This document shows positions 15,948 through 18,799 of a DNA stretch of 42,487 bases, in pieces. The stretch is from IMG/VR virus record IMGVR_UViG_3300024320_000014, positions 1 through 42,487 of that record. The stretch is one strand, 5' to 3'. Position numbers and translations under genes: made by a program. The stretch is from a virus. Taxonomy: Duplodnaviria > Caudoviricetes. Below the pieces are notes generated by a model that made no database searches, was not told the origin of the DNA, and saw nothing but the letters and a program-made list of their open reading frames with translations. Numbering within the stretch: position 1 is the first letter of the stretch; the number at the start of each line of letters is the position of its first letter.

Positions 15948-16796
15948 ATGAACACCAATGAGAACCCATTATCAAAATATTTCCGTAAACCGGGAATATA
16001 TGTACAAATTCCAACCGGTGGCAGATTTAATCCAGAAATAGAAAAAACTGTATTGGACGAGTTGCCTATACTTCCGATGACCGCAATTGATGAGATATCA
16101 ATGCAGAATCCTGATGAACTACTTAACGGCGAGGCACTCGTAAACCTCATCAAAAGTTGTGTTCCAGCGATTCCCAATCCAAGAAATCTATGCAATGTTG
16201 ATGCTGAAATGATATTTCTTGCAATCAAATATGCAACATATGGCAAAGATGTAGAACACACGCACACTTGTTCTGAATGCAAAGAGAAGGCAGATTACAA
16301 CATAGATATCAATCATATTCTTGAAAAGTTTCCAGATATTACTGAAATTCCAGCAATTGAACATGAAGACCTAAAGATATTTGTAACTCCGCCAAAATTA
16401 GACAGTCTAACGAGACTGGCTCTAATTGAAGTAGAACAAGCCCGTATATTAAACAAAATCAAAGAAACAGCAGAAGGCGTTGAAGGTGATGAGGTAGAAA
16501 TGGCAAAACAATTTGCTATTAGTTTCAGAAAAGTATCAAGACAGAACATAGACCTATTAATGAGTTCTATCGATAGAATCGAAACACCTACCGAAGCCAT
16601 TATTGACAAAAATGTCATTATGGAGTTTATGGAAAATGTTCCAACCAACATTGTTTCTAAAGTAAACGAGGCAGTGGGTGTTGCAACACCAAATTTAAAG
16701 GACATATCAACGTTCGAATTTACTTGTGAATCATGTAGTCACAAAGAAAAAGTAACGTTTGAATTGAATCCTGTAAATTTTTCCTCGGCTGGTTAA
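15948..16796 (+). CDS. Baseplate hub assembly protein / tail assembly chaperone, T4 gp26-like
   Basis: NPLSKYFRKP.IYV.IPTGG, PMTAIDEI, DAEMIFLAIK.ATYG, two CxxC motifs (CSEC, CESC) and NPVNF near the C-terminus. Confidence 0.8.
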   Translation: MNTNENPLSKYFRKPGIYVQIPTGGRFNPEIEKTVLDELPILPMTAIDEISMQNPDELLNGEALVNLIKSCVPAIPNPRNLCNVDAEMIFLAIKYATYGKDVEHTHTCSECKEKADYNIDINHILEKFPDITEIPAIEHEDLKIFVTPPKLDSLTRLALIEVEQARILNKIKETAEGVEGDEVEMAKQFAISFRKVSRQNIDLLMSSIDRIETPTEAIIDKNVIMEFMENVPTNIVSKVNEAVGVATPNLKDISTFEFTCESCSHKEKVTFELNPVNFSSAG

Positions 16797-17014
16797 AGAC
16801 TGCCAGCGACACTGAAGTAACAGAGAGACAAGAGTCTTATAAGAAATCACTTGAATCTCTACACAAAAATCTGTACAAACTGTCTTGGTATATGCGAGGT
16901 GGCGTCAGTATATCTGAAATCCATGATATGCCCGCTAATCATATAAAATATCTAAATGAGATAGTAAGTGACAACTTTGAGTTGAGCAAATCTGCTGGCG
17001 TACCTATTTTATAA
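16778..17014 (+). CDS. gp51-like ORF in the -1 frame, probably expressed as a frameshift fusion with the gp26-like protein (not in the ORF track)
   Basis: Open frame FFLGWLKTASDTEVTERQESYKKSLESLHKNLYKLSWYMRGGVSISEIHDMPANHIKYLNEIVSDNFELSKSAGVPIL*. The first ATG (16892) lies inside the WYMRGG motif. Confidence 0.75.
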   Translation, partial: FFLGWLKTASDTEVTERQESYKKSLESLHKNLYKLSWYMRGGVSISEIHDMPANHIKYLNEIVSDNFELSKSAGVPIL

Positions 17015-17021
17015 AAAATAC

Positions 17022-17070
17022 AAAAAAAGTTACAAAAAGGGTTGACATCTCTTTTTCATTATGTTAGTAT
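17022..17070 (+). promoter_or_regulatory. Sigma70-type promoter with UP element AAAAAAAGTTACAAAA
   Basis: UP 17022-17037, TTGACA 17042-17047, 17-nt spacer ending TGt, TAGTAT 17065-17070. Confidence 0.85.
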
Positions 17071-17076
17071 GGTCAA

Positions 17077-17570
17077 CATAACTAATACAAATCGATTCAA
17101 AAACCATTTTTAATTCTAATACAACTCCCCCAAAGGCTAATAATGATTCTAATAAAACAATACATAGTGGAACTGTTAGTCGGGTTGCCGACTCGGGATT
17201 GAGGGCGTATATTATACATACGTTCGGATAAGTTGGGTGAACTCCGACACTGCTTCTCGTAAACCACACAGACTGTTTGTAACATAAAACATTTGTTACT
17301 CTAAAGGTAATGAATGACTAGTATTTACCGTACAGAAATGTACACACCGCTGGTAGATTAAAAATACTACCAACTTTGATTAAGTTTTATTCTATGTGGA
17401 TTAATCAAAGTGCCGTTGGGTCGAAAGACGCAATACTAAGTTAAGAGGGAATCGCCAACCGACCTCGCCGTAACTAGCGGCTAACTTAGACATGGAATCT
17501 GATGAACTTGACAAGTATCAGCGATTGCCCCATGGATGGGCAATTGTGTCTTCCAAACTGACAAGCGAAT
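17077..17570 (+). ncRNA. Putative large structured ncRNA (~400-500 nt), family unknown
   Basis: 670-nt gap with no credible ORF. At least 12 helices between 17165 and 17555, including two GAAA tetraloop hairpins. Confidence 0.7.
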
Positions 17571-17686
17571 AAACAATAAATAATATTTAAATGGAATAAA
17601 CAAATATCAAGGAAATCTTCTTTGAGTGGAACGAAAAGAAATTTCCGAAGATATTAGGTCTTTAGACCTATTAAAATGAGAACACC

Positions 17687-18124
17687 ATGAGTGAATGGAC
17701 ATATAAAAATAAAGTTGTAAATGAATTACCTGAGAATGTTGAGGGATTTGTATATCTTATTACGAATCTTACAAATAACAAAAAGTACGTAGGTAAGAAG
17801 TTAGCACGATTTAAGACTACTAAACCACCTCTTAAAGGAAGAAAGAATAAAAGACGTGGTTATAAAGAAAGTGATTGGAGAACCTATTGGGGTTCTTCTG
17901 ACCATTTAAATGCGGACGTAAAAAAATTAGGTCCCGATAAATTTTCACGTGAAATTCTACACTATTGCCCGAGTCGAGGCGCATTAAGTTACGTAGAAGC
18001 CAAAGAACAGTTTGACCGTAGAGTACTTGAAACAGATGAGTACTATAATGGTATTATCAATGTACGAGTGGGAAGTTCGAAAATTCTTACTGAGTATCTA
18101 AACAGCGTTAAGAAGAAAGTATAG
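17687..18124 (+). CDS. Stand-alone GIY-YIG family endonuclease
   Basis: GFVYLITNLTNNKKYVGKK (GIY...YIG variant), YWGSS, FSREIL, a conserved Glu (YVE) and YYN. Confidence 0.85.
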   Translation: MSEWTYKNKVVNELPENVEGFVYLITNLTNNKKYVGKKLARFKTTKPPLKGRKNKRRGYKESDWRTYWGSSDHLNADVKKLGPDKFSREILHYCPSRGALSYVEAKEQFDRRVLETDEYYNGIINVRVGSSKILTEYLNSVKKKV

Positions 18125-18362
18125 GCGCTAACAGCCACTGATAGATTCCTATCCCATCAATCAATAAGAAAAACATATTCTGTACAATCAGAGGCTTATC
18201 TTTAAGTATCAAAAAAACGTAGATAGCAATTATATGTCCTGTTGCAAATAAAGGAAATGCATATTTGGATTCTGGAATATTCAAAGATATTAAAGTACCA
18301 GCACATACAAACATGAATGTTGCTGACCATTTTATTTTTTCTATTGTTCGTGGGGATAACAT
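18108..18362 (-). CDS. Small membrane protein, 84 aa, about 3 TM helices (probable start MLSPRT at 18362)
   Basis: Hydrophobic segments (WSATFMFVCAGTLISL, FPLFATGHIIAIYVFL, LIVQNMFFLLIDGIGIYQW). The longer 18494 start would run through a terminator. CCTAAATA late motif at 18398-18391. Confidence 0.75.
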   Translation of the reverse strand: MLSPRTIEKIKWSATFMFVCAGTLISLNIPESKYAFPLFATGHIIAIYVFLILKDKPLIVQNMFFLLIDGIGIYQWLLAPILSS

Positions 18363-18400
18363 TATTCTACTCTCTAAACCGTGATATCTATATTTAGGTA

Positions 18401-18435
18401 AAAGAAAAACCCTGCACCATTTCTGATACAGGGTT
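18401..18435 (-). terminator. Intrinsic terminator of the minus-strand small RNA
   Basis: AACCCTGTATCA-GAAA-TGGTGCAGGGTT-TTTCTTT: 12-bp stem with two G-U pairs valid only on the minus strand. Confidence 0.85.
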
Positions 18436-18570
18436 CTCCGCCTTACTCCTTTTTGTGCTTTTTTCAGTGGTACGTTAAGGTCTAACCCACCCACTCTCTT
18501 TAAGAGAGCAAAGCAACAAGTACCAGTGTCGATGAGAGAGGTTTAGAGGAGACATAGGCACCCGTTGATT
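18401..18570 (-). ncRNA. Putative ~170-nt small RNA, rod-shaped with a central bubble
   Basis: Own promoter and terminator. Nested helices GCCT/AGGC, CTCCT/AGGAG, TGGTAC/GTACCA and GCTCTCT/AGAGAGT. Confidence 0.65.
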
Positions 18571-18575
18571 ATATA

Positions 18576-18624
18576 ATATTAACATACTGGACTATCAAAG
18601 TCAAGCGATTTTGTAACTTTTTTT
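18576..18624 (-). promoter_or_regulatory. Sigma70-type promoter with UP element AAAAAAAGTTACAAAA
   Basis: UP 18624-18609, TTGACT 18604-18599, 17-nt spacer ending TGt, TAATAT 18581-18576. Confidence 0.8.
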
Positions 18625-18799
18625 ACATATTGTTCTTTTTTTCTTGGATTTCTGCTCTACGTACCTTTGTAAGTTTTCCAATATCGCCTAGTGCTTTTCT
18701 GGCACGAGCCGCTGAGGCTTTTACACCTTTTTCTTCAAACTTGGCATTTTCTGCCTGATATGTTTCAATTGCTTCCATAATTTGTGCGTCTGTACTCAT
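18623..18799 (-). CDS. Small basic protein, histone H1-like Hc1 family (58 aa, not in the ORF track)
   Basis: MSTDAQIMEAIETYQAENAKFEEKGVKASAARARKALGDIGKLTKVRRAEIQEKKNNM*; AAGGAG RBS; KG.KA.A.RARK motif. Confidence 0.8.
   Translation of the reverse strand: MSTDAQIMEAIETYQAENAKFEEKGVKASAARARKALGDIGKLTKVRRAEIQEKKNNM

Follow-up and report, generated by a model that had tools for sequence, protein, structure and literature searches.

A conserved RNA with three pseudoknots in T4-like jumbo phages and its possible role in an R-loop replication origin

We describe a structured RNA of about 400 nt, here called type A, that is encoded in a marine phage genome fragment and in many relatives. Judged by covariation among homologues, it is a real, conserved structured RNA with three pseudoknots, and it is uncatalogued, belonging to no known RNA family. 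We give about even credence to the reading that it is a cis-acting, ColE1-like pre-primer of an R-loop replication origin in T4-like jumbo phages, in which case it would work like a known kind of origin. The stand-alone GIY-YIG nuclease gene that follows it is a neighbour rather than a partner of the RNA.

The window (the whole stretch of 42,487 nt that was analysed, IMG/VR record IMGVR_UViG_3300024320_000014) is a fragment of a T4-like jumbo phage of marine origin, and among the best 40 matches to its portal protein, the proteins of PA5oct, Atu_ph07 and Rak2-like phages showed 46-53% identity. The RNA locus is flanked by a gp26/gp51-like gene and by a GIY-YIG gene of 145 aa, and it adjoins gp46/gp47 (Table 1). 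An earlier note, made from the letters of the window, had described a 670-nt gap behind a near-consensus sigma70 promoter, and both were found again, the gene-free gap measuring 672 nt (17015-17686). A crude promoter pattern matched 29 of 47 distinct upstream regions. The promoter appears to be optional, being missing where the gap between gp51 and the RNA is short, and at loci lacking it the RNA is presumably transcribed by read-through. CTAAYA copies, three to seven in number, were present in 46 of the 47 upstream regions, the sole exception being a truncated contig, and from their arrangement the CTAATA repeats may be iteron-like. The gp51 gene stood immediately 5' of the RNA in 64 of the 66 distinct loci having room for it. 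It was also noted that the gp51-like frame of the window (16770-17014) is open from 16784 with its first ATG only at 16892, and that it overlaps the end of the gp26-like ORF at a slippery-looking A/T run, a candidate -1 frameshift.

Table 1. Features of the RNA locus and its flanks (window positions)
Feature	Positions	Strand	Basis
gp26-like baseplate hub gene and gp51-like frame	15948..17014	+	usual upstream neighbour of the RNA
sigma70-type promoter, extended -10 (TTGACA-17-TG-TAGTAT)	17042..17070	+	sequence pattern, alignment
four CTAATA direct repeats, variable spacers	17082..17154	+	repeats in upstream regions
conserved structured RNA core, type A, ~400 nt	17164..17565	+	36-sequence alignment, covariation
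domain I: closing helix GTGG/CCAC, hairpin 17178-17193, CGGGA/TCTCG around two hairpins	17167..17267	+	pairing test
hairpin with conserved CTAAA loop	17290..17316	+	alignment
pseudoknot PK2: 17318-17321 with hairpin loop 17474-17477	17318..17477	+	covariation
pseudoknot PK3: hairpin loop 17389-17397 with 17490-17498	17389..17498	+	covariation
pseudoknot PK1: GTTGR 17415-17419 with loop YCAAC 17455-17459 of the GAGG/CCTC hairpin	17415..17459	+	covariation
X1, first copy of the co-varying word, TGACAAG	17509..17515	+	permutation test
3' hairpin between X1 and X2	17523..17545	+	wobble changes
X2, second copy of the word, TGACAAG	17559..17565	+	permutation test
AT-rich tract, 76% AT (no genome-average comparison)	17567..17655	.	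composition
perfect hairpin AGGTC-TTTA-GACCT	17656..17669	+	conservation
stand-alone GIY-YIG nuclease, PF19835; phrog_447	17687..18124	+	profile match, fold

The type A core was found to be kept in 68 distinct phage sequences with enough flank, pooled from motif scans that gathered 74 viral and 114 metagenome loci. Among 80 loci retrieved by the nuclease, 45 carried the RNA core upstream of it, and two more are cut short and hold the downstream flank only. Thirty-six chosen cores were aligned (mean column identity 74%), and RNAalifold predicted 76 pairs from this alignment, 34 of them with two-sided changes. When structures were drawn by hand, 93.6% of the cells of the core were paired and 18 of its 46 pairs had two-sided changes (18 sequences), and the corresponding values for domain I were 95.4% and 11 of 29 (21 sequences). 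Slid controls for these structures were 31-49% paired; the paired fraction was reached in 0 of 500 shuffles and the domain I pair count in 20 of 500, in tests that ignore kinship and on structures derived from these same sequences. The folding energy of 17077-17600 on the + strand was better than that of shuffled controls, as the earlier note had expected (z -3.04, 0/100); the - strand gave a weak signal (z -1.64, 6/100), and the core alone gave z -2.53 (1/100). One-sided, wobble-type changes in the 3' hairpin indicate that the + strand is the folded strand. The proposal of a new class of large structured RNA was thereby upheld by conservation and compensatory changes in homologues, with its size reduced from about 500 nt to a conserved core of about 400 nt.

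The same note had called the gap packed with helices, and all 16 of its listed helix pairs are present as sequence. Among the 36 homologues, AGTCGG/CCGACT, CGGGA/TCTCG, GAGG/CCTC, GCCG/CGGC and ATTGCCC/GGGCAAT had 100% of their cells paired, and TGGTAG/CTACCA (95%), CTAAGTTA/TAACTTAG (92%) and CGTAT/ATACG (86%) were also kept, as was GTC-GAAA-GAC (100%, in the 18-sequence core alignment). The helices of ACTTTGATTAA (71%), GTACA (67%) and CTGAT/ATCAG (76%) are present but variable, while GTAACA/TGTTAC (49%), GGTAA/TTACC (57%), TCGGA/TCCGA (78%) and AGACA/TGTCT (81%) are poorly kept or clash with better-supported helices. A suggested pseudoknot between AATCGC and GCGATT, paired in 79% of cells with two-sided changes in one of six columns, is not among the three that were supported. 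Of these three, PK1 contains the top-ranked covarying pair of the alignment (G-C in 21 sequences, A-T in 15) and is a core motif of the whole family. All four positions of PK2 were paired in 36 of 36 sequences, one of them as T-A in 23 and C-G in 13, and locus L447 showed an additional compensatory change at a second position. PK3 was 97.3% paired, with two-sided changes in five of its nine pairs.

We looked for this RNA among known families. No Rfam match was obtained on either strand at the gathering score or at E values up to 10, which agrees with the earlier failure to place the sequence in a known class; ARAGORN called nothing, and neither its search nor the family models matched a group I or group II intron, RNase P or tmRNA. 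Compared by blastn with cultured phages, the gap gave only chance matches of 32-37 nt, and the type A motif had two matches in GTDB, both bare 18-20-mers without the RNA. Two candidates were set aside: an Rfam patAB match that sits over the promoter and falls far below the cut-off, and a likeness by eye to motifs of RNase P, group I/II introns and HEARO that received no support from the models. A search of the literature returned no description of this RNA. Six motif terms were absent from six supplementary files of PMC10690425, and the RNA may be among the unnamed candidates of that paper.

Sister RNA types that resemble type A are found on the opposite side of the nuclease gene or at a distance from it. 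Of 50 type B loci, 43 had a GIY-YIG gene upstream, two a resolvase-like gene and four unrelated genes, and one was truncated. Type C was encountered in about 820 stored stretches, with GIY-YIG upstream in 68 of the 70 loci having room. A Rak2-type element is a further form. By eye, types A, B, C and the Rak2 type share a start with a CTGTT hairpin, a purine-rich hairpin ending in CC(C)G(A)CYY, a U-rich stretch with a 3' hairpin, and perfect hairpins downstream. Sequence profiles of the subtypes did not cross-match, and type A covariance models with default filters found nothing in four genomes. Run unfiltered, the core model pointed to the expected position in only 5 of 15 type B loci (E 0.5-10), and the domain I model did so in 4 of 14 type C and 3 of 15 type B loci (E 0.005-6.5). 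A descriptor, written after the sequences had been seen, matched the window, two type B copies, four of the five copies in phage fHe-Yen9-04 and a copy on an E. coli island; there was no other match in these records and a single one in 45 shuffles, and the descriptor missed type C, PA5oct, one type B and one Rak2 copy. The homology of the subtypes thus appears to stand at the limit of detection, with modest objective support. A fourth subtype was also observed after a GIY-YIG gene (L072:3426-3800), with a core loop that mixes features of types B and C.

Several genomes carry more than one copy. Phage fHe-Yen9-04 has five co-oriented copies at about 24, 93, 174, 260 and 335 kb, 44-86 kb apart and 69-75% identical to one another, and its element matched 62 cultured phage records, with four or five places each in the best 40 of the 62. 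In each of two near-complete genomes (G010 and G011), type C occupies the core slot and a type B copy in the same orientation lies at a distance of 174-181 kb. An element particular to PA5oct occurs in three copies in that phage; it is syntenic and would be related to type A on the grounds of synteny and motifs seen by eye. One of these coincides with the annotated ncRNA004, a low-level transcript at 0.02-0.08% of phage reads (PMC7318152, Table 1). In the PA5oct locus L161:9705-10517, four small ORFs annotated as hypothetical, which may be spurious, lie across or next to the RNA-like element. One E. coli genome was seen to carry a Rak2-type copy at ffs, within an integrase island, and a search of 5426 genomes matched two; this island of about 10 kb (L412:4959-15303) appears satellite-like and carries a tyrosine integrase, a recombinase and DUF488, DUF4326 and dual-OB genes. 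Type A itself was sampled from genome fragments.

The 3' end of the RNA has a feature common to types A, B and C: a word of 5-9 nt occurs twice, with X1 before the 3' hairpin and X2 49-71 nt further on. The word varies between relatives and is matched within each locus, a match reached in 0 of 5000 permutations in each of the three subtypes (40, 23 and 64 loci for A, B and C, two of 66 type C loci having been dropped for want of an anchor), a result that is inflated by related loci. The longest shared word averaged 6.97, 7.09 and 7.41 nt within loci and 5.63, 4.68 and 6.02 nt across loci (A, B and C), and the covariation by identity surfaced unprompted in type C. No co-varying complement of X was found inside the RNA (609, 1716 and 134 of 2000 permutations), so that any pairing partner must lie outside it. 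Among 92 distinct X1/X2 pairs, 16 of the 23 internal mismatches had G in X1 and A in X2 and none the reverse, although the 16 are not independent events and the stem of X1 may itself fix the G. This is the direction that an rG-dT wobble allows, and the bias is as predicted for X1 in RNA paired with the DNA template strand at X2. X1 often lies in a hairpin loop, and X2 is probably the 3' end of the RNA as well as the predicted DNA target of X1.

Beyond X2, the AT-rich tract is a candidate unwinding element, and the hairpin that follows was present in 66 of the 68 distinct type A loci; in locus L447 the stem differs and the C-TTTA-G loop is kept. Downstream hairpins with GNA, GNNA or TTTA loops were found in 26 of 40, 22 of 23 and 50 of 64 loci (A, B and C), those of type A being mostly C-TTTA-G rather than GNA. 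Sense-strand occurrences of GCG(N1-2)AGC were counted in 11, 19 and 44 loci and antisense occurrences in 0, 0 and 12, and in type C 26 downstream hairpins have a DNA-type loop on the antisense strand. A GAGCG..AGCG pattern had no match in four cultured genomes. In the portion of PMC13037366 available, such mini-hairpins are described as far more stable as DNA than as RNA and as occurring at the priming sites of G4 and RSF1010. The downstream hairpin likely acts as single-stranded DNA. The order of promoter, CTAATA repeats, RNA, AT-rich tract and small perfect hairpins forms a module that moves as a unit.

Transcription was assessed in public sequencing runs. Fourteen runs recorded as RNA contain part of the stretch, and we examined seven of these together with one run of unrecorded kind. 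All seven RNA runs, from seawater metatranscriptomes, held contigs on the RNA, some of them identical to the window; these contigs carry neither strand nor level, and DNA carry-over is possible. RNA contigs from two studies end at 17563 and 17566 with no loose end, and the run of unrecorded kind continues past both positions, so these ends give a weak hint of the RNA 3' end. A single RNA-run contig (17538-17878) spans X2 and reaches into the GIY-YIG gene. Run X12 covers 17096-17563 only, and 18228-18421 is without an RNA-run contig in four runs, although such holes prove nothing. Further downstream, many RNA-run contigs lie over a 58-aa histone-H1-like Hc1 gene (18623-18799 on the - strand, PF07432), and in four runs contigs also cover a pyrimidine-rich stretch behind a terminator-like hairpin (18440-18620).

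The nuclease gene was the partner first suspected for this RNA. Its ORF is a full member of PF19835 (E 2e-35) and of phrog_447 (E 1e-36), a lone catalytic domain as originally described, and its model aligned with the I-TevI catalytic domain at a middling Z of 6.7 (rmsd 3.2, 80 aligned). Matching by sequence yielded no solved structure, and at E <= 0.001 Foldseek returned no match; the matches listed contained no Slx1-type chains, which excludes nothing. The phrog_447 label of NAD synthetase does not fit, the protein being a GIY-YIG nuclease by Pfam and fold, and relatives were detected by tblastn in 833 phage records. Immediately after the 68 type A cores, the next gene was GIY-YIG in 52 and a PD-(D/E)XK resolvase-like gene in 12 (PF24608, unrelated to GIY-YIG); in two others GIY-YIG lay behind an inserted gene, and two had neither. 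At L045:1796-3004 the RNA module and the GIY-YIG gene are separated by an inserted radical-SAM gene of 402 aa. The RNA was without a nearby nuclease at L445 and L447 and at L203, L236, L241 and L246, and L447 presents the complete module amid unrelated genes (model score 134.6 bits). The complete phage Melnitz has a nuclease 81% identical, and no RNA match was obtained in its genome with five RNA profiles and the descriptor. Sister phages carry other structured RNAs downstream of GIY-YIG genes that are about 80% identical, and in a tree of 46 nucleases the RNA types were clustered but intermixed. Since the RNA stands beside different nucleases or none, and the nuclease also occurs without the RNA, the link is not specific, and the idea of a nuclease partner or guide is not supported. 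The frequent adjacency is real and is explained by synteny; the earlier remark that it might be incidental appears correct. The slot holds a GIY-YIG, PD-(D/E)XK or EndoVII-annotated gene depending on the phage, and because it alternates with these genes, the GIY-YIG protein is likely the branched-DNA resolvase of the phage in a syntenic slot. GIY-YIG was found in none of five resolvase-bearing records and the resolvase in none of ten GIY-bearing ones, a search in which 14 of the 15 records are fragments (3-60% complete) and no positive control was available.

The reading of an R-loop origin was chosen because of the covariation of X1 and X2, the features downstream and the precedents of ColE1 and T4. 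Under this proposal, host RNA polymerase would transcribe the RNA, and the folded RNA would present X1, whose pairing target would be the template strand some 50 nt further downstream, at X2. A lasting RNA-DNA hybrid would thereby form and anchor the 3' end of the RNA. Opening of the AT-rich tract would follow, a helicase or primase might be recruited by hairpins on the strands left single, and leading-strand synthesis would start from the RNA 3' end. Dispersed co-oriented copies in G010, G011, fHe-Yen9-04 and PA5oct argue for an origin, as do the whole module in the unrelated context of L447 and the Rak2-type copy on the E. coli island. An R-loop primer had already been among the suggestions of the earlier note; the anatomy fits it best, and its GC-skew check lent no support: in four complete or almost complete genomes neither GC skew nor fourfold-site skew switches at any of the copies, and skew follows the coding strand. 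This absence argues against a classical bidirectional origin and not against a unidirectional one. Also counting against the origin reading are the weak homology among subtypes, the antisense-strand hairpin loops of type C and the contig that runs from X2 into the GIY-YIG gene. T4 origins are not known to need an elaborate RNA fold, and two similar loops, X1 and X2, could be protein sites.

That last point leads to a trans-acting role, in which the RNA would be a scaffold, sponge or decoy with X1 and X2 as twin protein-binding loops and the copies serving dosage. Its size and three pseudoknots do resemble GOLLD and ROOL, contigs of seven RNA runs cover parts of it, and X1 often sits in a hairpin loop. 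We nevertheless consider this role plausible but less likely than the origin, as X changes freely yet stays matched in relatives, which suits base pairing over recognition by protein, and as the DNA-type hairpins past the RNA end are left unexplained; the PA5oct transcript ncRNA004, weakly homologous, amounts in the part of PMC7318152 available to the low read share given above. A very different view is that of a leader regulating the downstream gene in cis, for which type A is suitably co-oriented: there is no terminator-like site on the + strand before the GIY-YIG gene, as first reported, and the bridging contig runs into that gene. The RNA of types B and C follows the nuclease gene instead, and the genes after it share no relationship from one locus to another, which makes a leader highly improbable.

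An RNA acting as partner, guide or preferred site of the nuclease, with an R-loop or branch cut for recombination or packaging, would account for a nuclease adjacent to 64 of 68 type A cores and upstream in 45 of 50 type B and 68 of 70 type C loci. Three unrelated nuclease folds occupy the slot, however, with the gene downstream, upstream or divergent; a radical-SAM gene can intervene, some loci lack the nuclease, and Melnitz has it without an RNA match. RNA subtypes that cannot be aligned with one another accompany nucleases that are about 80% identical and intermixed on the tree, and we saw no segment of the guide type, variable within a constant scaffold, so we regard this function as improbable. 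Slightly more doubtful still is a selfish or domesticated mobile element or ribozyme with X1 recognising its own end. Such an element would suit the dispersed copies, the movement of the module as a unit and the copy on the E. coli island, but same-genome copies are old (69-75% identity) with their structure kept, and one copy occupies a fixed core-gene slot across marine and cultured phages. Nor was there an Rfam ribozyme or intron match, or an adjacent transposase or reverse transcriptase at the loci whose ORFs were listed.

The R-loop origin reading bears on a wider question, as the literature searched gave no account of the initiation of DNA replication in T4-like jumbo phages, and the available parts of two reviews (PMC7824862 and PMC13282480, from 2021 and 2026) contained no passage on R-loops or replication origins. 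The element is specific, conserved and mutable, and an X1/X2 swap is testable in cultured coliphages. Should the origin reading fail, there is still an uncatalogued family of large, multiply pseudoknotted RNAs on hundreds of marine phage contigs, suited to structure determination. The present work adds the type A RNA and its three pseudoknots, a link between the subtypes and the comparison across nuclease swaps. A joint reading, offered tentatively and with more doubt than belief, is that the T4-like jumbo clade, from abundant marine phages to cultured Rak2-like coliphages and PA5oct, uses several RNA-programmed origins with a re-programmable 7-nt address that finds its own DNA, that islands captured the module for copying by a helper phage, and that the 'NAD synthetase' GIY-YIG protein is a third kind of phage Holliday-junction resolvase.

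Several known systems can be compared with this element. GOLLD, ROOL and OLE are large ornate RNAs of bacteria and phages, of a similar size class, with pseudoknots and phage association. They differ in that their family models gave no match here (gathering score, E up to 10), and in that type A has a 3' word matched by a second copy, with DNA-type hairpins beyond the RNA. HEARO and the omega RNAs of IscB and TnpB are likewise large RNAs beside a nuclease gene, and the CTAAA-loop hairpin followed by TGACYAG presumably recalls the 5' part of HEARO; here no model matched, the nuclease is exchangeable and missing at some loci, and no guide segment was seen. The nuclease of the window shares family membership with the SegE-like GIY-YIG proteins of PF19835 and phrog_447, and it departs from a mobile homing endonuclease in being highly conserved and in alternating with resolvase genes. 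To our knowledge, T4 origin transcripts are not conserved ornate folds. The locus is like T4 oriF and oriG in belonging to a T4-like phage, in its promoter and AT-rich tract and in its several copies, and it differs in having a promoter that is sigma70-type and optional and in having downstream hairpins. In the portion of PMC4412123 available, oriF and oriG are described as a promoter with a downstream unwinding element, with several origins per genome; for ColE1, the rG stretch of RNA II pairs with a template dC stretch and holds the priming hybrid, and the displaced strand is proposed to load a helicase or primase. The likeness to ColE1 RNA II lies in a long folded transcript from an upstream promoter, with a segment that would be able to match the downstream template strand. 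The differences are that there is no sequence similarity, that no counterpart of the antisense RNA I was identified (no Rfam RNA I match on either strand), that the word is freely variable where ColE1 has a G run, and that the present RNA has three pseudoknots and lies in several copies on a phage chromosome, with a hybrid that is only predicted.
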